Program-made: the position numbers and the translations under genes
Assembly (NCBI GenBank): GCA_963770345.1
Contig: CAVYPH010000013.1
Coordinates: 140,280 to 204,279, forward strand
DNA from: Bryobacteraceae bacterium
Lineage (GTDB): Bacteria; Acidobacteriota; Terriglobia; Bryobacterales; Bryobacteraceae
Reading direction: 5' to 3'
Length of the DNA: 64,000 nt
Notes under the pieces: generated by a model
Databases searched by the model: none
Seen by the model: only the letters and a program-made list of their open reading frames with translations
Told to the model about the DNA's origin: nothing
Part shown: positions 4,223-64,000 of the stretch, one piece after another
Layout: every line of letters begins with the position of its first letter
Position numbering within the stretch: position 1 is the first letter of the stretch

Positions 4223-4729
4223 ATGTTCTGTCCTGCTTGCGGTCAAGCGAATGTCGATCAAGCGAAGTTTTGCACTGGATGCGGCAACAATCTGACGCAG
4301 TATCAGGCCGTATTTGCGCCCCCCGCTGCTGCCCCTCCGCAGCCGGAGCCCGTACCGGAACGTAAGCCGGCCGTAGATCCGTTCGGTAATCCGATCAATA
4401 CTCCGGGCGCTGTACCGGTTCCGCCGCCTGCTTCAACCCCGGTGCCGCCATTACCAATATATTCAACGCCGGCGCCTTCAGCGCCGCCTCCAACACCATT
4501 GCCTCCAACCATGGAGCAGCTAATTTCCTCTGCCCCACCCCCTCCACCCGTCTCCTCAATTCCAGTTGCGCCGCCTGCGGTTTTTCAAGCGCCCGTCCCT
4601 GTTGCAGCCAAATCGGCAGGCATCGTTGGTCTTCTCGTCTGGCTCCTGCTCGGCATCGCCGCCGGCGGTGGCGGCGCATACCTGGTTATCCACGAAAAAG
4701 CCGCCTCGGCGTCGGCTCCTTCACATTAA
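4223..4729 (+). CDS. Zinc-ribbon protein with Pro-rich linker and C-terminal TM anchor
   Basis: MFCPACGQANVDQAKFCTGCGNNL (CxxC..CxxC zinc ribbon), then a long P/A-rich segment, then the hydrophobic helix GIVGLLVWLLLGIAAGGGGAYLVI. Confidence 0.6.
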   Translation: MFCPACGQANVDQAKFCTGCGNNLTQYQAVFAPPAAAPPQPEPVPERKPAVDPFGNPINTPGAVPVPPPASTPVPPLPIYSTPAPSAPPPTPLPPTMEQLISSAPPPPPVSSIPVAPPAVFQAPVPVAAKSAGIVGLLVWLLLGIAAGGGGAYLVIHEKAASASAPSH

Positions 4730-4837
4730 AATCATTTAACAAACGGAATAATAGCATCCGAAGCCTGGATGTGAGAGGTAGTATCACCAGAGGGCCGACA
4801 ATTCGGCTAATTCTGTTCTGTAAAGAGGACTCTAAAC

Positions 4838-5077
4838 ATGAATCGACGAAAGTTCGGTATGGCACTTGGAAGCGCTGTAGCGGGTTTGGCCGCGGCGGCA
4901 AAACTGATGGCTGACGACGCCCCACCCAAGAAAGTGAAGGCTGCGAAGCACGATTGCAAGGGTAACAATGCTTGCAAGGGTCAGGGCGGCTGCAAGACCG
5001 GTGACAACGGTTGCAAAGGCAAGAACTCCTGCAAAGGCAAGGGTGGTTGCGCGGTTCCTCCGAAAAAAGATAAGTAA
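4838..5077 (+). CDS. bufA: Secreted 6-Cys Lys/Gly-rich peptide; bufferin-like (6/12-Cys type) RiPP precursor
   Basis: AAGAGGA Shine-Dalgarno lies upstream of the ATG. Signal peptide MNRRKFGMALGSAVAGLAAAAKLMA has an RRxF motif. Core is DDAPPKKVKAAKHDCKGNNACKGQGGCKTGDNGCKGKNSCKGKGGCAVPPKKDK. The gene lies immediately upstream of DoxX, DUF692 and DUF2063 genes. Confidence 0.7.
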   Translation: MNRRKFGMALGSAVAGLAAAAKLMADDAPPKKVKAAKHDCKGNNACKGQGGCKTGDNGCKGKNSCKGKGGCAVPPKKDK

Positions 5078-5104
5078 GAGGGGCTGTTGTAGTTTCCAGA
5101 TTAT

Positions 5105-5142
5105 TCTTTGTTGCGGGTCTTTCCTGGCCCGCAACAAAGAAG
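5105..5142 (+). promoter_or_regulatory. Intercistronic stem-loop after the precursor gene (possible attenuator, partial terminator or mRNA stabiliser)
   Basis: Perfect inverted repeat ctttgttgcggg (5107-5118) / cccgcaacaaag (5129-5140). It extends by 2 A-T pairs and has a 10-nt loop. It lies 28 nt after the precursor stop and 19 nt before the DoxX start. There is no clear U-tract. Confidence 0.5.
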
Positions 5143-5160
5143 CATTAACGTCTATTTCCC

Positions 5161-5616
5161 ATGCTCGAATCTCTCTTGCGGCGGAGCTCCGCCATCGCGG
5201 CCGCGCTAGCCTTCCTCCCTCCTCTTCTCACGCGGTTGGTGATCGGCCAGGCGTTTCATCTCACCGGTCACGGTAAGCTGGTAAACTTTGATCGCACGGT
5301 CGATTTCTTCACTAGCCTGGGCATCCCGTTTCCCCACGCAAACGCCGCGTTCATAGCGAGTCTGGAGTTTGTGGGCGGTCTCTGTTTGATGCTGGGTCTC
5401 GGCACGCGCATTTTCGCCGGGCTTCTGTCGTGCAGCATGATCGTTGCGTTGATGACAGCCGACAAAGCCGATTTCGTGTCGAAATTCTGGTCGGCGATCA
5501 CCGACGTCACATCGTTCGTGTACCTGTTATTCTTAATTTGGCTGGTGGTGTATGGCCCCGGCCCGGTCAGTTTGGACGCGCTCATTGGAAGATGGTACCG
5601 GGCGCGGCGTAAATAG
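5161..5616 (+). CDS. DoxX family membrane protein (BufD-like)
   Basis: Four predicted TM helices with DoxX-like sequence: RLVIGQAFHLTGHGKLVNFDRTVDFFTSLGIPFPHANAAFIASLEFVGGLCLMLGLGTR. Confidence 0.75.
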   Translation: MLESLLRRSSAIAAALAFLPPLLTRLVIGQAFHLTGHGKLVNFDRTVDFFTSLGIPFPHANAAFIASLEFVGGLCLMLGLGTRIFAGLLSCSMIVALMTADKADFVSKFWSAITDVTSFVYLLFLIWLVVYGPGPVSLDALIGRWYRARRK

Positions 5617-7288: not shown

Positions 7289-8109
7289 TTGCCTGCCGCA
7301 CCGGGGCCGGCAATCTGCGCTAGCCAAGCTTCCTTCATTTCACCTAACGTAGACTTAGTAGCATTCCCCAAAGCTTGTTCGAAATCGTCCGCTTGAAGCG
7401 CCGCGGTCATTACCTCGATTCCATTCCGCTCCACCAGAAACTTCACGAACGACTGCGACATGACATAGAAAGGAGCGGCGACACCTCGACGATCCTCGCC
7501 CATACTGGGAGGCTCGCCCACCGCGCCAACGTATTGCACCACAGCCTTGCCGCCATCACGGGTAAGCCAACGCGCCGCCGCCTTGTCCACACCTTTATTG
7601 CCGTCCCTGGCGAAAATGGCGCCGTCATATCCGCCGATGTGTTCGCTTACGTAACTCTGCACGAATGACGCAAATCCCTCGGAAAGCCAAGTCTGACAAT
7701 GACGGCACGGTTCCAGGATATGCAGCGTCTCGTGAAGGTACGGAGCGGACCGGTTCTGAACGCGCTCCAACGGTAGGTAGATCACCCGTGAGCGCGAGTG
7801 CGAAATATCCACGTGGCCGCTGACGAAATATTGGATCTTATCCGTGCGGGCTGGAAGTTTGAGATAAGTCCGGATATCCTCAATGCCTTTGTTCACCAAC
7901 GCCGCAAAGGCCTGCCGCTGTTCTTCCGTTAGCGTGTCCTGCTCAAAGAACACAATGGCGGAGTCCATTTCGCAGCGAACGCCGGTGTCGCGCATATCCT
8001 GGGCGAGCTGGCGATCGGCCATCCACGCCTCGCGATAAGACTGCGGCCATGCGGGTACGGCCGCCACGAGCAGCATACAACCGGCGAGGTGCAATACTGT
8101 TCGCGCCAT
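7285..8109 (-). CDS. Secreted hypothetical protein with HExxH motif (putative zinc peptidase)
   Basis: Signal peptide MARTVLHLAGCMLLVAAVPAWPQ and an internal PYLHETLHILE (HExxH). It is convergent with bufC, with a 4-nt overlap. Confidence 0.5.
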   Translation of the reverse strand: MARTVLHLAGCMLLVAAVPAWPQSYREAWMADRQLAQDMRDTGVRCEMDSAIVFFEQDTLTEEQRQAFAALVNKGIEDIRTYLKLPARTDKIQYFVSGHVDISHSRSRVIYLPLERVQNRSAPYLHETLHILEPCRHCQTWLSEGFASFVQSYVSEHIGGYDGAIFARDGNKGVDKAAARWLTRDGGKAVVQYVGAVGEPPSMGEDRRGVAAPFYVMSQSFVKFLVERNGIEVMTAALQADDFEQALGNATKSTLGEMKEAWLAQIAGPGAAGN

Positions 8110-51862: not shown

Positions 51863-53047
51863 TTGCCGCTCACACGCCGCTCGCCACTCATCCCAATTTT
51901 TTTAATCGTCGCGGTAGATATCCTAGGGCTCACCATCATCTTGCCCCTGCTGCCGTTCTATGCGGAAAAAATGGGAGCCAGCGCAACCGAGGTGGGTCTG
52001 CTGGTTTCGGTTTACGCATTGTGCCAGCTCTTTTCAGGTCCCCTACTGGGAAGGCTTTCCGACCGCACTGGCCGCAAGCCGCTCCTGCTGCTTAGTCAGC
52101 TAGGCACGTTCATTGGATTTCTGGTTTTGGCCTACGCGCCGTCGCTGTGGGTGGTTTTCCTTTCTCGAATCATCGATGGCTCGACGGCTGGGAATATTTC
52201 ACTCGCGCAGGCGTATATTTCCGATGTCACCGAGCCGGAGAAGCGCACCGGCGCCTTCGCTCTCATCGGCATCGCCTTCGGACTCGGGTTCCTGATCGGG
52301 CCGGCGATTTCCGGATTCCTGGCGCAGTACAGCTATCAATACCCCATCTTCGCCGCCGCCGCACTGTCGGCCACAAGCATCCTGGCGACGGCCACCCTAT
52401 TGCCGTCGACGACACCCGCGGCCGCCTCCGATGGCCGCAAGCTCTCGGTGCTCGACTGGGGAGCCTACGTGAAGTTCTTCCAGCGGCCCCAACTGGGACC
52501 ACTGCTCTGGCAATTCGCCGCTTTCATGATGGCTTTCTCGTTCTTCATCTCCGGATTCGCACTTTTTGCCGAAAGGCGATATTCATTTGGGCCGAAGCAA
52601 GTGGGATACGTGTACGGTTACGTCGGATTCCTCGGCGTTATTCTCCAGGGAGGATTGATCGGTCGCTTGTCCCGGCGATTCGGCGATTTGGCGCTGGTCA
52701 AGTGGGGATTCCTGCTCGCGGCAATTGGCTACGCGGCCCTGGCGTTCACGTTCAGAATTCCCGCATTGCTTGTCGTGAGTGCAGTCTCGTCCATGGGATC
52801 GGGAGCGCTGCGGCCCGCCCTCACCAGCCTGATCACGCAACGGACAAAGCGAACGGAGCAAGGAACAGTGCTCGGCCTCACGCAGTCGCTGAATTCAGTG
52901 GCATCGATCATCGCGCCCGCCATAGCGGGAATGCTGATCAACGTTCAACTGCTCTCAACGTGGGCATTCGTAATGGCGGGATTCTGCGCCGCCGGCCTGT
53001 TCCTGCAAACGCAGGCAGCAGCCGGCGGCACAGAGAATCCGAATTAG
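51863..53047 (+). CDS. MFS transporter (Tet/TCR-like, 12 TM)
   Basis: TTG start. LIPIFLIVAVDILGLTIILPLLPFYA and GPLLGRLSDRTGRKPLL (MFS motif A). Confidence 0.8.
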   Translation: MPLTRRSPLIPIFLIVAVDILGLTIILPLLPFYAEKMGASATEVGLLVSVYALCQLFSGPLLGRLSDRTGRKPLLLLSQLGTFIGFLVLAYAPSLWVVFLSRIIDGSTAGNISLAQAYISDVTEPEKRTGAFALIGIAFGLGFLIGPAISGFLAQYSYQYPIFAAAALSATSILATATLLPSTTPAAASDGRKLSVLDWGAYVKFFQRPQLGPLLWQFAAFMMAFSFFISGFALFAERRYSFGPKQVGYVYGYVGFLGVILQGGLIGRLSRRFGDLALVKWGFLLAAIGYAALAFTFRIPALLVVSAVSSMGSGALRPALTSLITQRTKRTEQGTVLGLTQSLNSVASIIAPAIAGMLINVQLLSTWAFVMAGFCAAGLFLQTQAAAGGTENPN

Positions 53048-53049
53048 TA

Positions 53050-53415
53050 TCAACGCCAGCCTGTCCGTCCGTAGGTGCGAAAGTCACGAAGCATATCGAT
53101 ATCGCGTCTGAAAATCTCACGATCCTCCGGGCGCAATTCGCGGGAATGCGAAAGGCGGCTCAACATGTCGATGGCTCGATCGATGTGAGCCGTATCGAAT
53201 TCGTGTTCGTAGTGAACGTCCCGCTCAAAGCGCACCAGTTCATCCTGTGCACGCGCAAACTCCCTACGCTTCTCTACATCCACAAAGGAGCGGTCGGAGA
53301 TGTGGCGAAGATCTTCCAGTGTCCTATGCACGGGAGACTCGCGGCGTGGCTGAGCAGACACCGCCATAACGGCCAGGAGTCCCAAAAATATGGTTGTAAG
53401 TAAATATCGCATCAA
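53050..53415 (-). CDS. Small secreted hypothetical protein
   Basis: Signal MMRYLLTTIFLGLLAVMAVSAQ followed by a charged helical body. Confidence 0.45.
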   Translation of the reverse strand: MMRYLLTTIFLGLLAVMAVSAQPRRESPVHRTLEDLRHISDRSFVDVEKRREFARAQDELVRFERDVHYEHEFDTAHIDRAIDMLSRLSHSRELRPEDREIFRRDIDMLRDFRTYGRTGWR

Positions 53416-53504
53416 AATTTCTTCCTCCGTTCTATCGACGCGCCTCCTTTAGAAATTGCTTCTTTGCGAAAGATTTTTAATCGACGGTAATAGAATGGAC
53501 TCTC

Positions 53505-54867
53505 ATGGAGAGCATCAAGTATTTATTGACCTGAGGACCGGATTCCACGGGCTTGGTACAACATCGTTCCAGACCTGCCGAAGCCCCCGGCGCCTGTGTT
53601 GCATCCGGGCACGCACCAGCCCGTAGGGCCTGACGATCTCTCGCCGCTGTTTCCCATGAGCCTCATCATGCAAGAGGTGAGCACCGAACCGGAAATCGAA
53701 ATTCCGGATGAAGTGCGGCAGGTGTACGCGCAGTGGCGGCCGTCGCCTCTTTATCGCGCGCGGCGGCTGGAGAAGATGCTCGATACACCGGCGCGGATCT
53801 ACTACAAGTACGAAGGTGTGAGCCCGGCCGGCTCGCATAAACCGAACACCGCAGTCCCACAGGCGTACTACAACAAGAAGGAAGGGATCAAGCGGCTGGC
53901 GACTGAGACAGGCGCCGGACAATGGGGATCGTCCCTGGCCATGGCCTGCGCGTTCTTTGGTATCGAGTGCAAAGTGTATATGGTGCGCGTCAGCTACGAC
54001 CAGAAGCCGTATCGCCGCGCCTTGATGGAAGCGTTTGGCGCTTCTGTGACGGCCAGTCCGAGCCGCGAGACGGAATCGGGCAAAGCGATTCTCGCGCAGC
54101 ATCCGGATTCAACGGGCTCGCTCGGCATCGCCATTTCGGAAGCGGTGGAGGTTGCGGCCAAGGATTCCGGCACGCACTACGCGCTCGGCAGCGTTCTGAA
54201 TCACGTGTTGCTGCATCAGACGGTGGTGGGACTGGAATGCCTGGAACAGATGCAGATGGCAGGCGACTATCCCGACGTCATCGTCGGTTGCACCGGCGGA
54301 GGTTCCAACTTCGCTGGCCTCGCGTTTCCGTTCGTGGGAAGAAATCTCAAGGGAAAAGCAAAATCGCGCGTGGTTGCTGTGGAGCCGGCGGCGTGTCCCA
54401 GCCTCACCAGGGGCAGATTCGCGTACGATTTCGGCGATACCGGCCATCTCACGCCGTTGGTGAAGATGCACACGCTCGGCAGCGCTTTCGTACCGCCGGG
54501 AATTCACGCCGGCGGACTGCGTTATCACGGCATGGCGCCGCTTGTTTCGCACCTGCTCGATCTCGGAGCAATTGAGGCCACCGCCGTTCAGCAGCTCGAT
54601 GCGTTCGCCGCAGGAGTGCAGTTCGCCCGAGCGGAAGGCATCATCCCCGCGCCCGAAGCAAATCACGCTGTCGCCGGAGCCATCGGCGAAGCCCTGCGCT
54701 GCAAGCAGGAAGGCGTTTCCCGAACCATACTCTTTAATCTATGTGGACACGGCCACTTCGACATGCAGTCCTACATCGATTACCACGCCGGGAAACTTCA
54801 AAACTACGACTATCCGGCCGAAGAGATCGGGATGGCTCTAGCGGGCCTGCCTGTCGTCGCCGCGTAA
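53505..54867 (+). CDS. TrpB-like PLP-dependent enzyme (tryptophan synthase beta, TrpB2 type); apparent 1-nt insertion near 53532
   Basis: ATG 53505 gives MESIKYLLT, then TGA. Removing t53532 gives [36 protein letters not shown]..., the usual TrpB2 N-terminus. The uninterrupted ORF 53596-54867 contains [18 protein letters not shown] (PLP Lys) and [11 protein letters not shown]. Confidence 0.8.
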
Positions 54868-54961
54868 TCGACTAGCACCTCGTGCACATTCTGTGGAAGT
54901 GTTCTAAATTTAGGTTGTGGGTGTTGATGCCCATTGAGTCGATTGGGACGGAGTGAGAAGA

Positions 54962-55243
54962 ATGGATGAGGAACTGAAGAAGTACCTTACGGCGATGGAA
55001 GAACGTCTCACGACTGGCATGGACCAGCGGATCGAGGCTTCCGAGCAAAGGCTTGTCGAAAAAATGCGGGACATGCAGTCGGAGCTGCTTCGCGGTTTCC
55101 GCGCGTTCTCGGGAGCCCCGGTGATCCGGTTGCGAAAATTGGAAGCGGATCAATCGAACTTGGATGCCTCTTTGTCTGACCGTCTCGAGGTCGTCGAAAC
55201 CGGGCTATTGGAAATCACAGAACGGCTCGTCCGAGCGAGGTGA
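54962..55243 (+). CDS. Small coiled-coil hypothetical protein
   Basis: GGAG lies 10 nt upstream of ATG 54962. MDEELKKYLTAMEERLTTGMDQRIEASEQRLVEKMRDMQSELL... is heptad-like. Confidence 0.45.
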   Translation: MDEELKKYLTAMEERLTTGMDQRIEASEQRLVEKMRDMQSELLRGFRAFSGAPVIRLRKLEADQSNLDASLSDRLEVVETGLLEITERLVRAR

Positions 55244-55408
55244 ATTCTTTACGCCTTTGCACCGCCTCCCACGCCGCACATCGACTCCAGTACCCGCGTC
55301 GTTGCCGTGTAATGCACTAAATCTATTGGCATTCTCCCCCCATTCACCAGCAAAGATAAACTAGAGCCTGCAGTAGATCGGCTTTAGGCCCGATTTCCTT
55401 CTGGTGAG

Positions 55409-58249
55409 ATGACTAATCGGATCGGCAGATACGAGGTTCAAGCGGAGCTGGGCCGCGGCGGTTTCGGCCGGGTCTTTCGCGCCTTTGATCCTACTGTCGG
55501 CCGTCTCGTCGCAATCAAAACCCTGACGGCCTCCGGTGAGCAGGATATGCTCACGCGTTTTCGGAATGAGGCTGCCGCGGCGGGAAGATTACGTCATCAG
55601 AACATCGTCATCATCTACGACTTCGGTGAACACGAAGGAGCGCCATTCCTGGTGATGGAGCTGCTCGATGGAGAGGACATCGAGCGCATCATCACCAACA
55701 ATCGCCCTCTGACTCTCCTGAAAAAGCTCGACATCATGATGCAGTCCGCGGCAGGACTGCACCACGCCCACTCCAAGGGCATCGTCCACCGGGATGTAAA
55801 ACCGGCCAACATCATGCTGCTGTCCGACGGCTCTGTGAAGATCATGGACTTCGGCATCGCGCTGCTGACACAGGCCACCGCCGACCGCATCACGCCGCAG
55901 GGATCAATGCTCGGAACCCTGCCGTACATGGCTCCCGAACAGTTTTTCGGTTCGCCTTCGAGCGCGATGACCGACATCTTCGCGTATGGCGTGACCTCCT
56001 ACAAGCTGCTCACGGGTGCGCATCCTTTTCATGCGGCCGAATTAGGTTCGATGATGCACAAGATCGCGAACCAACAGCCGCCGCTGCTCCGCACGGTTAT
56101 CCCGGAGTGCCCTGAAGCGCTCGAGCAGGTACTCAGCAAGCTATTGGCCAAAAGTCCCGAATCACGTTACCAAAGCCTCGAAGACGCCCAGTTCGATCTG
56201 GAGCCCGTCATCATCGATCTACGCCGCGAAAACGTGAGCGAGCTGCTCACCGAGTCGCGGAATCTGATTGCCGCGGATCAGTGGGAAACCGCCCAGATGG
56301 TGGTGCGGCAGGTAATTGAGATCGATCCGGGCAACCGCACCGCCAGGGAATTGCGGGAGGGGATACAACGGCAACTCAAGGACAGAGCCGTGCGGCCGCA
56401 GATCACCGCGCTGGTGAGCGCCGGCCGCGAGCAATTGGTCGTAAGACAATTCGACGACGCGATCCAAAAATTCGAGTCGGCGCTGCGCCTGGACAAATCG
56501 AATCCTGAATTGCATCGGCTGATCGAGGAGGCGAAGGCAGCCTCGGAACGGGCTCGGCGCGCCGACAAGCTGTTGGAAGAGGCCAGGCAGGCGCTTCACC
56601 GGGAGGATTTGACGGCGGCGCACGACAGCATCGCGGAGGCGCTATCCGCCGATCCGGACCACGCTCAAGCGGAAGCACTGCTAGGCAATGTCCGCGAACG
56701 GATGGAGTCGCGCCGGCGGGAACAGCGGCTGCGCGATAGTCTAAGTCAGCTCAAGGGCCTGATGTTGTTGCAGAGTTTTGACGAGGCCATCGAGGCTGCG
56801 ACCCGGATTCAACTGGAGTATCCGGAATCGGCCGAAGCCGGGAAGATTCTCGACAAGGCGCGGCGTGAACAGCAAGTGCAAGCGCGGCGGCAGCGGTTGC
56901 AGGCTGCTGTCGACGAAGCAAAAGAGCTGCTCAGAAACCGTCATTTTTCGCAGGCGGTCGCTAAGCTCTCCGAGTGGCAGGCGGAGTTTCCAGAGGCCGC
57001 CGAGTTGCGCGACCTGGCTTCCTACGCCGCTGAGGAATTGCAGGCGGAGAAGCAGGCGAAGGTAATCGCGCGAGCCACGGCGGAGACGCGAGCGCTGGTG
57101 GTCGCCGGCAACTTCGATACTGCGCTCGATCGTCTCAGAAGCGCCCTGCACGAATACCCCACTCTCAGCGCGCTGCGTGATTTGGTACAGAGTGTCGCTT
57201 CGGATAAGGCCGAGCACCAACGCAACACGGCCTTGAGCGAGGTACTCGAAAAAGGCGCTGCGCTGGTCAAGGGGGAACGGTTTTCGGAGGCGATCGAGGC
57301 AATTGGCGCGTTCGTGCGCGCCTATGGGGATAATACCGCTCTCGGTCCCTTGCGCAAACAGGCGGAAGAGGGACTCGAACACCAGAGACGAGCCGCCGCA
57401 GTCCGAAAACTCGTTCTCGACGCGCAAGCATTGCTCGACGAAGGCAGGCCCGGAACGGCCACGCAGGTATTGCAGCAGGGAACTGTCCAGTTCCCGGGGA
57501 ACACCGAACTGGCCAGGCTGCTGGGGGTGGCCGAGAACAACCTGCGCGAACAGCAGCAGGCTGAGGCGATTTCAAAGATCATCGCCGAAGCCGAAAGTTC
57601 GGCCAGGGCGAAGAGGTTCGATAACGCGCTCGAGCTCATTGACGAAGGTCAGCGGAAGTATCCCACGGCGGATCGTCTACGCCGTTGCCGTGAGGCAATC
57701 GTGGCAAGCCATGCCACCTTTGAGCGGGATCGCCTGCGCCGCGAAATGGTGGAGCGCGTCCGCCTTCTGCATTCGCAAGGCAAGGCGGCCGAAGCTCTGG
57801 AAGCGATCGAAACCGCCCTGGCAAACGGCGTCGAAGATCCCTCCCTGCTCGCCCTGAAGCAAAAAATCGACAAGGACCTCGTCGAGCGCAGGCGCTCGGA
57901 TGAGATGCGGCAGGCCATCAATCAGGCGCAAGCATTGCTCGATGGCGGCCAGATTCAGTCCGCCACCCAGCTCTTGCAGAATGCGACGCGTCTTTTTCCG
58001 TCTGAGGAGCAGTTCAAGATCCTGATGCAGCAGGCCGAGGAGCGCCTGCAGCAACAACAGCGCACCGAAGCTATCGCGAAGGCACTACAGGATGCCGAAG
58101 CGCGTACCAATGCGAATGATTTCGACCGCGCAATCCAGGTGCTCGATGAGGCCGTGCGACGGTACGGATCAGATGATGCCCTGGCGCGCGCCCGCGATGA
58201 CGCCCGCGCCGGGAAAACTGCCCAGGAACGTTCTCAAGGCAATTCTTGA
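55409..58249 (+). CDS. Ser/Thr protein kinase with long helical (TPR-like) repeat region; probably the N-terminal part of a frameshift-split gene
   Basis: GRGGFGRVFRA, VAIKTL, HRDVKPANIML, DFGIA and PYMAPE are present. About 650 aa of ~70-aa helical repeats follow. Confidence 0.85.
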   Translation: MTNRIGRYEVQAELGRGGFGRVFRAFDPTVGRLVAIKTLTASGEQDMLTRFRNEAAAAGRLRHQNIVIIYDFGEHEGAPFLVMELLDGEDIERIITNNRPLTLLKKLDIMMQSAAGLHHAHSKGIVHRDVKPANIMLLSDGSVKIMDFGIALLTQATADRITPQGSMLGTLPYMAPEQFFGSPSSAMTDIFAYGVTSYKLLTGAHPFHAAELGSMMHKIANQQPPLLRTVIPECPEALEQVLSKLLAKSPESRYQSLEDAQFDLEPVIIDLRRENVSELLTESRNLIAADQWETAQMVVRQVIEIDPGNRTARELREGIQRQLKDRAVRPQITALVSAGREQLVVRQFDDAIQKFESALRLDKSNPELHRLIEEAKAASERARRADKLLEEARQALHREDLTAAHDSIAEALSADPDHAQAEALLGNVRERMESRRREQRLRDSLSQLKGLMLLQSFDEAIEAATRIQLEYPESAEAGKILDKARREQQVQARRQRLQAAVDEAKELLRNRHFSQAVAKLSEWQAEFPEAAELRDLASYAAEELQAEKQAKVIARATAETRALVVAGNFDTALDRLRSALHEYPTLSALRDLVQSVASDKAEHQRNTALSEVLEKGAALVKGERFSEAIEAIGAFVRAYGDNTALGPLRKQAEEGLEHQRRAAAVRKLVLDAQALLDEGRPGTATQVLQQGTVQFPGNTELARLLGVAENNLREQQQAEAISKIIAEAESSARAKRFDNALELIDEGQRKYPTADRLRRCREAIVASHATFERDRLRREMVERVRLLHSQGKAAEALEAIETALANGVEDPSLLALKQKIDKDLVERRRSDEMRQAINQAQALLDGGQIQSATQLLQNATRLFPSEEQFKILMQQAEERLQQQQRTEAIAKALQDAEARTNANDFDRAIQVLDEAVRRYGSDDALARARDDARAGKTAQERSQGNS

Positions 58250-60848
58250 CGCCCAGGCGCGCGCCCGGGAAGCGCAGAAGTCAGGGCGTTTGGCCGAAGG
58301 CATTCAAACAATCGATGCGGCCATCAAACGGCTCGGTGAAGATGCCGCGCTCGCTGCCCTGAAAAAGGATCTCGCTGCCCAGCTTGAGGCCCGTAGACGC
58401 GATGAGGAGACGCAGGCAGCCCTCCGGCAGGCAAGAGATTTCCTGGCCAAAAACGACCCCACCTCGGCGACCCAAATTCTCCAAATTCTGCAGCGGGTCC
58501 AACCACAAGCTCGGGACAACAAGCAGATCGCCGAACTGCTCGCGGCAGCCGAGACGAAACTTACGGAGCAGAAACGGGAACAGGCGATTGCGGTCCTCAC
58601 CCAGGAAGTAAACAAGCTTGGAGCCGAGGGCCGGTTTGAACAGGCCCTGCGAACGCTTGACGGCGCGCTCGCACAATTCCCCGGCGTAGAACATCTGGAA
58701 CGCTTGCGCAGACCTCTTCTGGCAGGCCAGGCGCGCGTGGAATTGCTGGCGCTGGCGAAACGGCTGCATGGGGAAGGCCAGTTCGACGCCGCATTGCAGA
58801 AAACTCAAGAGGCTTTACGAACGGAGCCTCTTGACACCGAGTTCTTGCGGTTAAAGTCGGCGATCGAGGCGGACCTGGCGAAGCAAAGGCAACTCGCCGA
58901 GATCCGCAAAACGATGGAGCAGGCCCAGGCGATGCTGCGCGCGGACCATCTGAACGAAGCCGTCGCATTGCTACAGCGGACAGCCGTGCAGTATCCCGCG
59001 GAGAAGCAGGTTTCCGACCTCCTGCGGACCGTCGAAGAGGAACTGCGAAAGCGCCAGCGTGCAAAAGAATGTGAAGACGGCCGGGCGCAAGCACAGTCCT
59101 TGCTATCGCAGAACAAACAGGAAGAAGCGATCGCGTTGATCGAAGGCCGCTTTGCAAACGAACCGTCGTTTCAGGATCTGCTGCTCCGCGCGAAAAAGGA
59201 ATTGGACGCAAAGCAGCGCGACGCGTTGCTGCAACAAGCCGTAGCACTCGGCAGGGAGCAGCGTTTCGAGGAAGCGGTACAACTGGTCGATCAGGCGGTC
59301 AGCCGGCACGGGTCAACAGACGCGGCGGTCGAGTTACGCCGCCGCCTCCAAGCGGAACTCGATCAGCAGTTGCGTCGCAAAGCCCGCGATCGCGACCGCG
59401 CCCAGCTACTCGCCCTTGAGCAACAGATCGGGACAAATCCGCCCAAGCGGAAGTTGAACAAGCTCGCCGCGGAAGCCCAAAGCATCGCCGCCAGGTACGC
59501 CGCCGATCAGGAGATTGCGGCGATCGCCGGCAGAATCCAGCAGGCAGTGCTAGCGGTGCCCGAGGAAAAGGGCTTGTCGCCCCGCCTCTTGGTGGGCGGC
59601 GGCGTCGGCGTTGCGGTTCTAATCGGAGCGGCCGTGTTTTTCCTGCGGTCACCGTCTCCGGCTCCCCCGCCGGTAATAGCGCCAGTTGCCGTTGAGATCC
59701 ACACTGATCCGCCGGGAGCGTCCGTGCGGATCGAAGATCGTTCGTGCGTCACGCCCACCTGCCGTTTCGACCTGAAGCCAGGACAATACCAACTGGAAGC
59801 GCGGTTGAACGGATACCAGACGATCCAACAGGCCGTCAACGTGGAGCCAGACAAAGGCTCCCGCATCGTGGAGTTGACCCTGCAGCCCGTACCCGCACCC
59901 CCGCCGCCTCCCGGCGATACGACTCCGGCGACCGGGACACTGGTAGTCCGCGCGGGCGTACCGGGCGCACTCGTCTACATCGACGGTGCTGCCCGCAGCC
60001 GTACGGACCAGTCCGGTTCGGTCACCCTGCCGCTGGAAGCGAAAACATACGAAGTGCGTGTGGAGAGAAACGGCTATGACAAACCGGCCGCGCAGAAGGT
60101 GACGATCGCCAAGGGAGGCAGGCAGGCAGTGAGCTTCCAACTCGTTCAGCAGGTGGCCAAGGTCGAGTCCCACGGCCCACTGCCGGGAGCGGAGAAAGGC
60201 GGTGGCAAACCTTCCGGTGGCACGGACATCGGTTCGCTGCACCCCACTTCAAATCCGGACGGTTCACGGGCGAAGGAGGAGGCGGCCCGCCTCGCGGAAA
60301 CGGCCTGGAACGCCCTGGACAAGAACAATATCGAGGCGGTACGCAAGTTTGCCAGAGAGAATCCGGACAATCCCCACAAGACGGAGGCCCAGAAGATTCT
60401 CGACCAATATGATGCCGCCCAACAGCGGCTAGCGCAGGAGCGCGAAAAGCAGGAGCAGATCAAGAAGGATTTGGCCCGCCAGGAGCAGGCCAAACAGGAA
60501 CTCGCCAAACAAGAGCTGGCTAAACAGGAACTCCAGCGAAAACAACAGGTAGTCGACACGTTGAAACAACTTGACTCGGCGCTTCAGCGTAAACGAGCGG
60601 CTGACGTAAAGACGCTTTGGCCAACCGCCAGCAAATTGTTCTTCGACTCCCTACGGAGCGGGCAGGTCGCGATGTCGCTAAGCGCAAATGAAGAGGATGT
60701 CCAATTCCCGCAAGGGCCCGACCAGGCGGTTGCCCGCGGCATTCTGAGTACCAGGGCCACCGGAACGGCGCCAAGGCAACAAAGCGTCACCTTCACGCTC
60801 CGCAACACCGGAGGCACCTGGAAAATCGAACAAATGAGAGTCCAGTAG
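58092..60848 (+). CDS. Continuation of the kinase: helical repeats, TM helix, two PEGA domains, coiled coil, C-terminal NTF2-like domain
   Basis: From about 58230 the frame-0 reading VLKAILDAQARAREAQKSGRLAEG... continues the same repeat register. TM helix LLVGGGVGVAVLIGAAVFFL. PEGA-like VEIHTDPPGASVRIED...YQLEARLNGY and GALVYIDGAARS...YEVRVERNGY. The overlap with the upstream ORF argues against an independent gene. Confidence 0.6.
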   Translation: MPKRVPMRMISTAQSRCSMRPCDGTDQMMPWRAPAMTPAPGKLPRNVLKAILDAQARAREAQKSGRLAEGIQTIDAAIKRLGEDAALAALKKDLAAQLEARRRDEETQAALRQARDFLAKNDPTSATQILQILQRVQPQARDNKQIAELLAAAETKLTEQKREQAIAVLTQEVNKLGAEGRFEQALRTLDGALAQFPGVEHLERLRRPLLAGQARVELLALAKRLHGEGQFDAALQKTQEALRTEPLDTEFLRLKSAIEADLAKQRQLAEIRKTMEQAQAMLRADHLNEAVALLQRTAVQYPAEKQVSDLLRTVEEELRKRQRAKECEDGRAQAQSLLSQNKQEEAIALIEGRFANEPSFQDLLLRAKKELDAKQRDALLQQAVALGREQRFEEAVQLVDQAVSRHGSTDAAVELRRRLQAELDQQLRRKARDRDRAQLLALEQQIGTNPPKRKLNKLAAEAQSIAARYAADQEIAAIAGRIQQAVLAVPEEKGLSPRLLVGGGVGVAVLIGAAVFFLRSPSPAPPPVIAPVAVEIHTDPPGASVRIEDRSCVTPTCRFDLKPGQYQLEARLNGYQTIQQAVNVEPDKGSRIVELTLQPVPAPPPPPGDTTPATGTLVVRAGVPGALVYIDGAARSRTDQSGSVTLPLEAKTYEVRVERNGYDKPAAQKVTIAKGGRQAVSFQLVQQVAKVESHGPLPGAEKGGGKPSGGTDIGSLHPTSNPDGSRAKEEAARLAETAWNALDKNNIEAVRKFARENPDNPHKTEAQKILDQYDAAQQRLAQEREKQEQIKKDLARQEQAKQELAKQELAKQELQRKQQVVDTLKQLDSALQRKRAADVKTLWPTASKLFFDSLRSGQVAMSLSANEEDVQFPQGPDQAVARGILSTRATGTAPRQQSVTFTLRNTGGTWKIEQMRVQ

Positions 60849-60850
60849 GA

Positions 60851-62401
60851 CTAGAAGCTGTAACCCAGGCCGAACATCGGCGTTAGCCGCGCCGTCAGCC
60901 CGTTGTCATCCAGTCGCACCAGAAGATTGAAATTGGCCACCAGGTTGCCAATCACCCGAGCCTTGTAGCCAAACGAAGCGTTGTATTGACCAAACGAGAC
61001 GCGGCCGGCGCTCACCAGGCCAGCCGCTGTGGCCTTACCCGGAACCGCGGCTCCACTACTGTCCCCATTTACACCCGTTGGCAGCAATAGATTCGAGATC
61101 GTCTGAGTCGTAGCGTTCGGGATCCCATGAATCCACCCCACCTGATTTCCCAGGATGTCGGCGATGAGTGTGTTGTGCCGCCCCAAAGCCAGTTCCGCAC
61201 CGGCCGCCCAGGTAAACACATCCGGAAGGAAATCCTTGGTCGAAACGAAAGGCGCGCCGATGTAGTTGACCGTGCCAGTCGACGTGCTAGTGCTGAGCTG
61301 AGTACCTTGTAACTGCCCGCCCAGAACACTCTTCCCGCTGAATTGCCAACCAAAGTCGAAATGCGGCGAAAGAACAATATCGTTCTTCAAGGGCTTCGAA
61401 TAAAATGACACTGCGGCAAAGGGCTTCACGGTGGTGGTTCCGACGCCCAGATAGTTTTCCGCATCACCGGTCGGGAAGCGCAGGTCGGCGCCGACGGCGA
61501 CCACGACGCTGGACTTCCGCAACACTGTCCCTTTCGCACGTACCAGAAGATCCCCAAAGCCGGTCTTCGACAACGCGGTTTGACCAATCTGCGGCTGGAG
61601 CAAAGTAGGATAGCCAGGCGTAAACGTATTCACGCACCAGCAAGTAGAGCCATTGGTCCCAAATCCATTTCCGGCATAGATCGTCCCGTTATAGGTGCGG
61701 GCCCCAACCGAGGAGTGAATCGTCGGCAGGCCCACGGACACGTCGAATCTGTCGGTCACACCGTAAGTGAGAAACGCGATGTCCTGCGAAAGCCTGACGT
61801 CCATGCCGATAGCGAACGTCGCGGGAACGGTGGAGAGCTGGCTTCCCAGAGTGACTTTCGATGGGTCGCCGCCCTGATACAAGATGCTCAGCGCGTTCAG
61901 AGAAGTACCGTTGTACTTGGTGAAGTGAAAGGTCTGATTCGAAAACCCGATATAGAACTTCCCTTTCCCGATTGTCTCGGCGCGCTCCGTAAAGATCGGA
62001 CCAAGAGTGCTGCTCACCGGCAGCTCCGCGCCGGTCGCGGGATCCTTTCGGACGATCACACCGGACGCCGGAGACGACAATGGAATGATCGAAAGTGCCG
62101 TGGCAATACTGGCATTCAGTGCGTTGTTCAATTGCACGATGTTCTGCGAAACACTGTAGTTGGCCCCATTCAGGACATTGGCCGCAGTCGCATCGGCCAG
62201 ATTTGCCGCAGCGGCCGTCTCCGTAAAAATGCTGGGAACCGATCGGCTCAGAGTGAAACTGCTGGCGCCCGTCAACGTGGGTACAGTTATCGAGGGGTTG
62301 GTAGCCGAGTACATCAGCACCTGAGAGACGCTGGGGGACTGCCCGTAGGCAATGGCCGTGAAGAGAATCGCTGCAACAAGAAGTCTCGGACGGTGAAACA
62401 C
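60851..62401 (-). CDS. Putative outer-membrane beta-barrel protein
   Basis: Signal MFHRPRLLVAAILFTAIAYGQ. Alternating amphipathic beta-strand pattern with a C-terminal ...PMFGLGYSF (terminal Phe). Confidence 0.55.
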   Translation of the reverse strand: MFHRPRLLVAAILFTAIAYGQSPSVSQVLMYSATNPSITVPTLTGASSFTLSRSVPSIFTETAAAANLADATAANVLNGANYSVSQNIVQLNNALNASIATALSIIPLSSPASGVIVRKDPATGAELPVSSTLGPIFTERAETIGKGKFYIGFSNQTFHFTKYNGTSLNALSILYQGGDPSKVTLGSQLSTVPATFAIGMDVRLSQDIAFLTYGVTDRFDVSVGLPTIHSSVGARTYNGTIYAGNGFGTNGSTCWCVNTFTPGYPTLLQPQIGQTALSKTGFGDLLVRAKGTVLRKSSVVVAVGADLRFPTGDAENYLGVGTTTVKPFAAVSFYSKPLKNDIVLSPHFDFGWQFSGKSVLGGQLQGTQLSTSTSTGTVNYIGAPFVSTKDFLPDVFTWAAGAELALGRHNTLIADILGNQVGWIHGIPNATTQTISNLLLPTGVNGDSSGAAVPGKATAAGLVSAGRVSFGQYNASFGYKARVIGNLVANFNLLVRLDDNGLTARLTPMFGLGYSF

Positions 62402-62579
62402 AGTTTTGCTCCTTAAAGTGTCATAACATCATTGCGTTGAACAAATCTAGTCTAGCGTAAGACAGCGAAGCCGTCATGAATCTTTCGCAGCCTTGGTACC
62501 GTTTACCGGGCGCAACATCCCCACTATAGTAATGCGTAAAAGGTTCGTACTTCCGGCGAAAAAAACTTGTCATACGGTC

Positions 62580-62627
62580 GAAGAGATTGGTATGGCCTTA
62601 GCGGGCCTGCCGGTCGTTGCCGCATGA
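62580..62627 (+). pseudogene. Relic 3-prime end (16 codons including the stop) of a TrpB2-like gene
   Basis: gaagagattggtatggccttagcgggcctgccggtcgttgccgcatga encodes [15 protein letters not shown]-stop. This is identical in protein to the end of the 53505-54867 gene (54820-54867) with 7 synonymous differences and TAA changed to TGA. No upstream coding sequence remains. Confidence 0.7.
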
Positions 62628-62742
62628 TCCCCAGATTTTGCTAATCTGGAGAGATTAACTGGTTTCCTTTGGGGAAAGGGGACGCAGTATCTCTGCGTGT
62701 TCGGAGCGGCTTGCTTTAGATTTGCTTCTAAAGGGGAGTCGC

Positions 62743-64000
62743 ATGAAATTTTTCATCAGGTTATCGCTCGGCGTGCTGTTATTGCTGGCGGCAAGTTCTT
62801 TTGTTCTCCAGGCACAAATCACCGGCGATATCGTCGGTATCATCACCGACGCAAGCGGCGCGGCAGTTCCGAACGCAAAAGTAACGCTCACCAGCAAAGA
62901 AACCGGCGAGGGCCGTACGGTCACGTCCGACCATGAAGGCCGCTACGCCTTCAAGCTGCTCAAGATCAGCTCTTATGAAATCGCCGTCGAGGCGCCAGGC
63001 TTCCGGCGCACGGTGGCTGAGGCGGACGTCCGCAGCGCCGAGATCACGTCGGCCAATCTGAAACTCGAGGTGGGGCAGGTTACGGAACAAGTGGTGGTGA
63101 CAGACGCGGCGAGTCCTCTTGATACCCAAAACTCTCAGGTACAGCAGTCTGTGAATTCCAAGGAAGTTCATGAGATCCCGGTGGCGCGCAATCCCAACAC
63201 GTTTGCCACAATTCTTCCTGGCATTGTGCCTCCGATGGGCAGCGTCAACTCGGGCAGTTTCGTCGCGAATGGAAATCGCACGCGCGCCAACAACATCACC
63301 ATCGATAACATTACCGCTACCGACGTTTCGGTTGCCGGAACCGGCAGCACCAATAATGGACCGCTGAACTTCTCGCAGATCAAGGAAGTAAAGATCATTA
63401 CGAACAATTTCAGCGCCGAATTCGGACGCAACTCCGGCTCGCAAGTGCAGTACATCACCAAGAGCGGCACCAACGATTTCCACGGCGAGGTCTACGAGGA
63501 ACTGCGCAACAACGTTTTCAATGCGCGGGATTGGTTCGACCAGAGCGGTAAATCGACCGTCACCCGCTACAACGAGTTCGGCGGAGTGTTCGGCGGCCCT
63601 ATCATTCATAACAAGACGTTCTTCTTTGTCGCGGGCGAGGGATTGCCAACGGCGGGCCTCGGGGCGGCGCGCATCGCCCAGGTGCCGACAGCCTCGATGC
63701 TGGCCCAGGTAACCGATCCTACGTCGAAGAAGCTGCTGAGCGCCTACAATCTCCCTGCCGCAACCAGCGATCAGGGCACCTTTGGAACGGTGCAGCAAAA
63801 TGCGTCGAATGCAACCAGCTTTCATAGTTATTCGATTCGCTTCGATCACCAGATTTCCGAGAAGGACAATATCTACGGCCGCTTCGGAACGGCTTACAAC
63901 GCAGGCTCGAGTTCGGGAAATACCTTCATCAACACGAACATTGGCGGTTTCGGACTGAATTCGACCAATACAATTTACAGCGTGAACGTGAATGAAACGC
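62743..64000 (+). CDS. TonB-dependent receptor-like outer-membrane protein with carboxypeptidase-regulatory-like N-domain (3-prime partial, runs off window)
   Basis: GGGGAG lies upstream of ATG 62743. Signal MKFFIRLSLGVLLLLAASSFVLQAQ. ITGDIVGIITDASGAAVPNAKVTLTSKETGEGRTVTSDHEGRYAFKLL is a CarboxypepD_reg-like segment. The plug-like segment is ..IKEVKIITNNFSAEFGRNSGSQVQYITKSGTNDFHG. The ORF is open to nt 64000. Confidence 0.75.
   Translation, partial: MKFFIRLSLGVLLLLAASSFVLQAQITGDIVGIITDASGAAVPNAKVTLTSKETGEGRTVTSDHEGRYAFKLLKISSYEIAVEAPGFRRTVAEADVRSAEITSANLKLEVGQVTEQVVVTDAASPLDTQNSQVQQSVNSKEVHEIPVARNPNTFATILPGIVPPMGSVNSGSFVANGNRTRANNITIDNITATDVSVAGTGSTNNGPLNFSQIKEVKIITNNFSAEFGRNSGSQVQYITKSGTNDFHGEVYEELRNNVFNARDWFDQSGKSTVTRYNEFGGVFGGPIIHNKTFFFVAGEGLPTAGLGAARIAQVPTASMLAQVTDPTSKKLLSAYNLPAATSDQGTFGTVQQNASNATSFHSYSIRFDHQISEKDNIYGRFGTAYNAGSSSGNTFINTNIGGFGLNSTNTIYSVNVNET

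Follow-up and report, generated by a model that had tools for sequence, protein, structure and literature searches.

How did the end of a housekeeping-type gene come to lie, without its gene, far downstream of the intact copy? The question is raised by a 64,000-nt stretch of DNA (the window) from a Bryobacteraceae bacterium of the phylum Acidobacteriota (assembly GCA_963770345.1, contig CAVYPH010000013.1, positions 140,280–204,279). In it, the last codons of trpB2, a gene for a TrpB-like pyridoxal phosphate (PLP) enzyme, recur 7.7 kb downstream, shortly before a TonB-dependent-receptor-like gene. A small coiled-coil gene, a giant Ser/Thr kinase gene and a gene for an outer-membrane-barrel-like protein lie between the two copies. 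As argued below, the downstream copy is probably a gene end displaced by incoming DNA without the help of an integrase.

The repeated trpB2 end

The two gene ends form a direct repeat of 58 nt (nt 54812–54869 and 62572–62629; 83% identity, 48/58) with a spacing of 7760 nt, and nothing comparable was found when nt 52000–64000 were scanned for repeats. Its 48-nt core (nt 54820–54867 and 62580–62627) translates in both copies into the same 15-residue peptide followed by a stop. The eight nucleotide differences within the core comprise seven synonymous changes and the stop codon, which is TAA at the end of trpB2 and TGA in the downstream copy, or relic. An earlier interpretation of this DNA, made without database searches (the sequence-only reading), had reported the shared peptide, the exclusively synonymous changes and the two different stops, and the sequence and its translation are as quoted there. 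The alignment also agrees with its description of the three codons 5' of the core (YPA versus HTV), which are one base apart each, and of a likeness that fades farther upstream, the 25 nt before the core being diverged nearly to randomness. The core that it delimited is real, but the repeat reaches 8 nt farther in the 5' direction and 2 nt beyond the stop.

The relic has no gene body attached and ends with its stop codon. When the whole 8-Mb assembly was searched with the relic region, the only matches were the relic itself and the trpB2 end (E = 1.1e-9), and a dispersed repeat family, which had been considered as another source of the match, is therefore not involved. Nor is the conserved peptide readily produced by chance: in simulations with eight random substitutions, no more than 1 of 100,000 trials preserved peptide and stop, and with four the share was about 0.6%.

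State of the site in relatives

Four states of the site were observed. It is empty in L036 (TrpB2 93% identical), where trpB2 is followed by 134 nt and then by the receptor gene. L036 and this genome are collinear over 17 kb save for the 7.7 kb; the DNA after the trpB2 stop in L036 is homologous to the DNA after the relic of the window, and a single gene end occupies that position. This is the arrangement expected by the sequence-only reading, in which trpB2 would run straight into the receptor gene wherever the block is absent. In L141 the small gene alone lies between trpB2 and the receptor gene, about 8 nt of the relic remain, and the C-terminal third of the small gene is frameshifted relative to that of the window. 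In L037 (TrpB2 96% identical) trpB2 is followed by a degenerate, frameshifted small gene, by a relic of its own and by the receptor gene; this relic encodes 15 residues and a stop, and its homology to trpB2 covers 65–70 nt. The fullest state, with small gene, kinase, barrel and relic, is that of the window and, for its left side, of L140, which is 93.4% identical to the window at the nucleotide level over nt 54721–56238 and shares the left junction (gene end, small gene, kinase).

Since the small gene is common to L037 and L141, which have neither kinase nor barrel at the site, and since the kinase–barrel pair is found elsewhere in three other genera (see below), the insert is composite. Window and L140 on the one hand and L037 and L141 on the other share no homology in the spacer that separates the gene end from the small gene, and the 5' limit of the relic lies at -9 in the window and at about -25 in L037; both features hint at separate events. 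A possible third trace of a trpB2 end (GTCGTTGCCGTGTAA, nt 55298–55312, + strand) stands directly after the small gene of the window, at the place where L037 has its relic. The pattern was picked post hoc, its local alignment scores no better than background, and it was set aside as weak and not significant.

Searches for additional relatives added no further syntenic site. Among GTDB relatives (40, then 120 and 400 genomes of the family) none was close enough for trpB2–receptor synteny; a metagenome scan with TrpB2 gave nothing nearer than 87% and nothing syntenic, and a homolog search with a 419-aa piece of the receptor, from which relatives of full length were thereby excluded, gave nothing nearer than 70%. 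Two other differences were seen around the site in L036: an extra Exo_endo_phos gene (nt 4695–5546) lies directly upstream of trpB2 and is missing in the window and in L037, and beyond the receptor gene the synteny jumps by about 100 kb within contig C13. The neighbourhood is generally fluid.

The comparison also bears on whether a second, full-length trpB2 paralog could once have occupied the place before the receptor gene and have been deleted except for the relic. A relic that lacks a gene body and ends with a stop would be accounted for in this way, and the two ends have diverged as old paralogs would. However, the only match of trpB2 in the genome is trpB2 itself, none of the 20 relatives with a match carries more than one copy (0/20), and the one trpB2 of L036 is syntenic on its upstream as well as its downstream side. 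The recurrence of this layout with a short relic at four unrelated genes, described below, would moreover demand four lost paralogs. We regard this origin as highly improbable. Recombination or deletion between paralogs, which the sequence-only reading had offered as its alternative, fails on the same ground, the search for a second trpB2 that it had suggested having been run with no such gene found.

Silent divergence between the two ends

Between the two gene ends of the window, the proportion of silent differences (pS) is 0.55 and that of replacement differences (pN) is 0, no replacement being present in about 32 replacement sites. Orthologous genes of the window and its relatives provide the scale: the estimated silent substitutions per site (dS) are 0.22 against L140 (pS 0.19), 0.61 against L141 (pS 0.42), 0.58–0.74 against L037 (pS 0.40–0.47) and 1.07–1.28 against L036 (pS 0.57–0.61). 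Silent divergence at the level of between-species orthologs, combined with zero replacements, therefore points to two alleles that each diverged in use and were recently joined. In this respect the proposal that both copies evolved as coding sequence, and that another trpB2 allele was the source of the displaced downstream end, is supported. The corresponding ends in L037 have pS 0.75 and pN 0.12, three replacements being found in the relic alone; the displacement there would seem to be older than that in the window.

After local duplication followed by drift, a decaying relic should outpace the working copy, and mostly at replacement sites; the simulation led to the rejection of this model. 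A more elaborate version starts from a duplication of the gene end at the site itself, through a staggered break or template switching during the insertion. Overlap with the receptor gene's promoter or leader would then have kept the relic nearly unchanged, and the silent changes would all have occurred in the working copy. The position of the relic, 115–170 nt upstream of the receptor start and beside a conserved, strongly folded leader, would suit such a history, as would the identity of about 84% between window and L037 in the intergenic DNA flanking the relic, and a pair of gene ends in L114 (see below) that are identical at 50 of 51 positions. Yet L141 has lost nearly all of the relic and kept the leader, so the relic is dispensable, and the 25 nt upstream of the core are near random. 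Constraint at the DNA level would ignore codon positions and leave the silent-only pattern at the other scars, including that of a dehydrogenase gene described below, unexplained, and a silent divergence of 0.55 in the working copy alone would need species-level time. Duplication in place is accordingly thought very unlikely.

Other gene-end scars in the genome

A genome-wide scan for gene ends that are repeated nearby without a gene body returned at least four cases besides trpB2. The one most like it concerns a pyrroloquinoline quinone (PQQ) dehydrogenase gene, the last 19 codons of which recur as a 58-nt repeat 2.8 kb downstream with six silent changes, TGA versus TAG as stops, and no replacement (G000 C10:185046–185107 and 187867–187928; L155 3547–3608 and 6368–6429). 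The DNA between the copies holds a 488-aa gene of unknown type, a SnoaL-like gene and a DUF1801 gene, and no recombinase. A rubrerythrin-VIT gene (C10:210659–212269; L156) has a repeat of about 150 nt, 1.5 kb downstream, with three silent changes, TAG versus TGA as stops and a 38-nt deletion in the relic. For a sigma-70 factor (RpoD-like) gene (C12:361565–363034; L157) the repeat consists of 66 nt plus the terminator, lies 1.3 kb downstream, and shows three silent changes and one replacement. The last case is a 664-aa gene with no family above the cut-offs of Pfam (C7:273409–275521; L158), with a repeat of 106 nt, 2.0 kb downstream, that has two silent changes and two replacements. Taken together, the repeats of the last three cases measure 100–150 nt. 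All four inserts consist of ordinary or unknown genes, and no recombinase was found in or near them.

A related layout occurs in a distant trpB2 clade from other metagenomes, in which the gene end is followed by an insert of about 60 nt with a strong GC hairpin (GGGGGATCTNCAAGGGGGCG..GCCCCCTTG) and then by a second gene end (L112 11237–11384; L114 11237–11399; L117 about 7740–7860). The second end is identical at 50 of 51 positions in L114, differs by four silent codons and one replacement codon in L112, and is decayed in L117.

These cases are relevant to another explanation for the duplicated gene end, the integration of an element into the 3' end of trpB2 by a site-specific integrase, the recombinase gene having since been lost, or the block being a cis-mobilisable remnant served from elsewhere. 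Direct repeats do bracket the insert, a relative has the empty site, and the replacement end keeps trpB2 open with silent differences, as in the account of icd/icdC given in PMC13626634. The repeats, at 42–150 nt across the cases, are typical of attachment sites, and there are 34 tyrosine-recombinase matches elsewhere in the genome from which the function could be supplied. Against this, a Pfam scan of all large open reading frames (ORFs) in the 7.7 kb found no recombinase, transposase or other mobility domain (transposase families were not searched for genome-wide), and the nearest tyrosine recombinases (PF00589) lie 84 kb upstream and 54 kb downstream. Five different target genes, none with a recombinase in or beside its insert, argue against site-specific integration, as five specificities would be required. 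The insert carries a conserved pair of chromosomal genes together with a small gene that has paralogs on the chromosome, and its composition is native: the G+C content at third codon positions of the bracketed genes is 0.66–0.71 relative to 0.675 +/- 0.045 for the genome, and the profile of G+C and codon usage that the sequence-only reading had recommended is flat across the block. The inserts of L112 and L114 measure merely about 60 nt, and the 5' limits of the relics in the window and L037 are unequal. Integrase-mediated integration is hence considered unlikely, though less so than the histories discussed above. Of the element integration originally proposed for this locus, the displaced end and the insertion polymorphism stand; a single integrating element does not fit the lack of a recombinase, the composite cargo and the recurrence of the class.

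Two structures of a different kind were noticed in the same genome. At C6:11215–14242 and C7:1109388–1113597 there are exact tandem duplications, with units of 2545 nt and 2503 nt, each of which includes a tyrosine-recombinase gene, and further copies of these genes are present on C4, C5 and C7. The units are likely to be either an active family resembling insertion elements or an expansion introduced by the assembly.

Probable displacement of the gene end

Displacement without an integrase, as in 'insertion with long target duplication', is the explanation that we hold to be probable for the stranded trpB2 end. DNA from a diverged lineage would have recombined into the end of trpB2, bringing its own trpB2 end and a cargo, namely the small coiled-coil gene plus, in this lineage, the kinase–barrel pair. 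The resident trpB2 would have kept one of the ends and stayed intact, while the other was stranded downstream; the relic would thus be the non-functional scar of an allele end that once stood directly before the receptor gene. Two routes would give this layout most simply. Homologous pairing in trpB2 on one side could be accompanied, on the other, by an illegitimate join within the end of the resident gene; alternatively, a single crossover could insert a circle that bears a short copy of the gene end. By either route the repeat would start at the join of the foreign end, and it would stop at the stop codon because donor and recipient differ past it. The small gene, kinase and barrel could have arrived in one import, or the small gene could have come first and the pair later. 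The data show directly the repeat with its silent divergence, the empty and intermediate sites of relatives, the lack of a paralog and of a recombinase, and a like architecture at four other genes, whereas the foreign origin of one end, the identity of the resident copy and the recombination pathway are inferred.

The closest parallel is the insertion with long target duplication of Nobusato et al. (2000), as cited by Furuta, Abe and Kobayashi (2010; PMC2853133). There, the inserted blocks are shorter than 20 kb and absent from a related genome (here 7.7 kb, with L036 empty), their flanking direct repeats exceed 30 bp and both correspond in alignment to one copy at the empty site (here 58 nt, with a single end in L036), and the repeats are unique in the genome with no transposase or integrase present, as is the case here. 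Some of the repeats reported there overlap the 3' ends of genes. The cargo reported there, however, is restriction-modification systems, the hosts are mostly naturally competent species and the repeats are nearly identical, whereas the present insert carries a coiled-coil gene and a kinase–barrel pair in a Bryobacteraceae acidobacterium, between repeats that are 17% diverged, at silent sites only.

Escherichia coli icd, with prophage e14 and phage 21 inserted at its 3' end and with the pseudogene icdC (Hill et al. 1989, as described in PMC13626634), shows the same outcome by another means. According to that description, the gene runs into a replacement end supplied by the insert, the original end is stranded at the far border, and the differences are mostly synonymous. 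Unlike the present block, in which no recombinase, phage gene or compositional signal was detected, e14, a prophage, encodes a site-specific integrase of its own and is excised on SOS induction. C-terminal displacement is known also from rhs loci (Jackson et al. 2009, PMC2935791) and, in sequential form, from the T6SS (type VI secretion system) effector ends in Vibrio cholerae (PMC5361080). In these, an incoming end and its downstream genes join a conserved gene body and the incumbent end becomes a silent downstream fragment, again without an integrase. The routes proposed are a single crossover with a circle that bears a piece of the gene (PMC2935791) and homology-facilitated illegitimate recombination (PMC5361080). 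The incoming ends in the rhs and T6SS systems are non-homologous toxin domains that diversify the protein, whereas here the 15 residues of a housekeeping-type enzyme are identical and only the cargo changes. Minimal mobile elements (2007 work cited in PMC3787668) share with this site the alternation of different cassettes, or none, between the same conserved flanking genes of close relatives, without mobility genes. They are exchanged by double homologous recombination in both flanks, whereas at this site no step in divergence along trpB2 was seen among the few alleles compared; and they leave no duplicated gene end.

Several points weigh against displacement. No donor lineage with a native order of trpB2, small gene and kinase was found among the sequences searched, and the mechanism itself was not observed. 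When the ends of five lineages are compared over about 13 silent sites, the distances overlap, hints of grouping conflict and the native copy is indistinguishable. A grouping into two types (working end of the window with the relic of L037, and relic of the window with the working end of L037) appears at four sites, is blurred by the end of L141 and was not relied on. Along trpB2 no step in divergence marks the left crossover, few alleles having been compared. The lengths of the relics cluster at about 56–150 nt, which would also fit the attachment sites of a site-specific recombinase. If the relic of the window is the same old relic as that of L037, its perfect coding state would need an additional cause, such as a separate event or the replacement of its sequence through recombination with alleles of the empty site.

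The assembly provides two more such points: it has frameshifts, in trpB2 and in the kinase gene, and may contain small errors, and the junction between barrel gene and relic is present on no independent contig. Together with a marker completeness of 78.8% despite 15 contigs, they are also what would be cited for the view that an error-prone assembly of mixed strains created the right-hand junction artificially. Independent metagenome contigs nevertheless carry the left junction (L140) and a relic before the receptor gene (L037); a mixture of strains would yield a bubble in the assembly, not a duplicated end, and four similar structures exist elsewhere in the genome. An artefact is, in our estimation, the least credible of the explanations considered.

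Genes in and around the insert

The features of the locus are listed in Table 1.

Table 1. Features of the trpB2–receptor locus (positions are those of the window).
Feature	Position	Strand	Basis or remark
trpB2 (TrpB-like PLP enzyme)	53505..54867	+	PALP domain, E = 4e-43; homologs of 453 aa, named TrpB-like
trpB2 3' end, working (left repeat copy, 18 residues)	54812..54869	+	Repeat search, translation, alignment
Small coiled-coil gene, first cargo gene (93–96 aa)	54962..55243	+	No Pfam family; homologs at same position in L140, L141 and L037
Giant Ser/Thr kinase with TPR, PEGA and CarboxypepD_reg	55409..60848	+	Pfam
Outer-membrane-barrel-like protein, 516 aa, convergent with kinase	60851..62401	-	No Pfam match
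Right end of inserted DNA, upstream region of barrel gene	62402..62571	.	Sequence
Putative stranded trpB2 3' end, relic (right repeat copy, 18 residues)	62572..62629	+	Repeat and genome search, alignment; position of the real trpB2 end in L036
Structured leader of receptor gene	62630..62742	+	Folding; conserved in L037, L141 and L036
TonB-dependent-receptor-like gene with CarboxypepD_reg, Plug and barrel, 1074 aa, extends past window	62743..64000	+	Pfam, synteny

Near the start of trpB2, at about nt 53532, there is a one-base insertion after codon 9 (ACC T GAG) that puts the conserved N-terminus out of frame in comparison with P0002. As sequenced, the frame is open only from a GTG at nt 53596, and the frameshift may be either a real inactivation or an error of the assembly. 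The closest TrpB2 homologs bear source names that indicate Bryobacteraceae.

The small coiled-coil gene most likely starts at the ATG at nt 54962, which gives 93 aa. It has two paralogs elsewhere in the genome; these were examined as signs of an element family and dismissed, as no gene-end duplications are present at the paralogs. Members of the family (P0124, P0125, P0130) vary by inserted repeat units resembling an 11-residue period (HVDQRVEASEHRL...), and one relative adjoins rpsL.

The kinase is frameshifted near nt 58215–58235, close to a GGGAAAAC run, and is thereby divided into overlapping frames of 946 and 918 aa (nt 58092–58249). Its orthologs in G135 and G045, which belong to two other genera, each occupy one undivided ORF (1919 and 1929 aa), and the kinase is a single frameshifted gene of roughly 1,800 codons, not two genes. 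Kinase and barrel are single-copy in this genome, and their orthologs are adjacent in three other genera of the family, far from trpB2 and with unrelated flanks. In the four genera in which the two are neighbours (window; L135, L136, L137) the genes are convergent in three and in tandem in one. This conserved adjacency suggests a functional pair, a signalling kinase with an outer-membrane partner, and the pair is ordinary cargo of chromosomal origin and belongs to no mobile element. An exact-protein look-up of the 516-aa barrel protein, made for the right junction, found no record. One promoter-like site (+ strand, nt 62502–62530) falls within the right end of the inserted DNA; the promoter, terminator and Rfam scans otherwise gave nothing decisive.

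The receptor gene appears from its synteny to be the original downstream neighbour of trpB2. Its leader folds strongly (nt 62620–62745; -52 kcal/mol, z = -3.85), with a last hairpin that covers the ribosome-binding site, and is a candidate cis-regulatory RNA, for which Rfam returned no match. The 7-bp hairpin previously noticed at nt 62631–62649 exists, but it belongs to this larger structure. More distant receptor orthologs (L144–L152) have another motif about 60–140 nt upstream, ACGCCAAAGCTCGCCA ... GGCG..GCTTTTCGCTTG, which looks like a conserved hairpin.

Implications for gene turnover in Bryobacteraceae

The trpB2 scar belongs to a known class of insertion scars, and its interest lies in the recurrence of the class within one genome and in the cargo. 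The relic has no obvious function; its value is that of a dated, directional marker of gene gain. By the account favoured here, a 7.7-kb block that includes a giant kinase and its putative outer-membrane partner entered the end of a housekeeping-type gene without the machinery of a mobile element, and the lineage that supplied the DNA would have been roughly as distant as another species. The recurrence, with similar scars at trpB2 in an unrelated clade, suggests that accessory genes of soil Acidobacteria are regularly turned over by recombination with its anchor at gene ends. As gene-end relics with silent changes only are easily scanned for, such events could be counted and dated genome-wide.

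A bolder, speculative idea, to which we give little weight at present, is that short gene-end copies serve as reusable docking points for integrase-less gene mobility in Bryobacteraceae, and perhaps widely. If so, recombination by the host would excise a cassette between two versions of a gene end as a circle that retains one of them; after transfer to another lineage, a single crossover at the same gene end would let the circle in again. Ordinary genes of the chromosome, the kinase and barrel among them, could in this manner cross between species and leave silent-only relics behind, and the five scars in this one genome would then be the record of an active process rather than of rare accidents.

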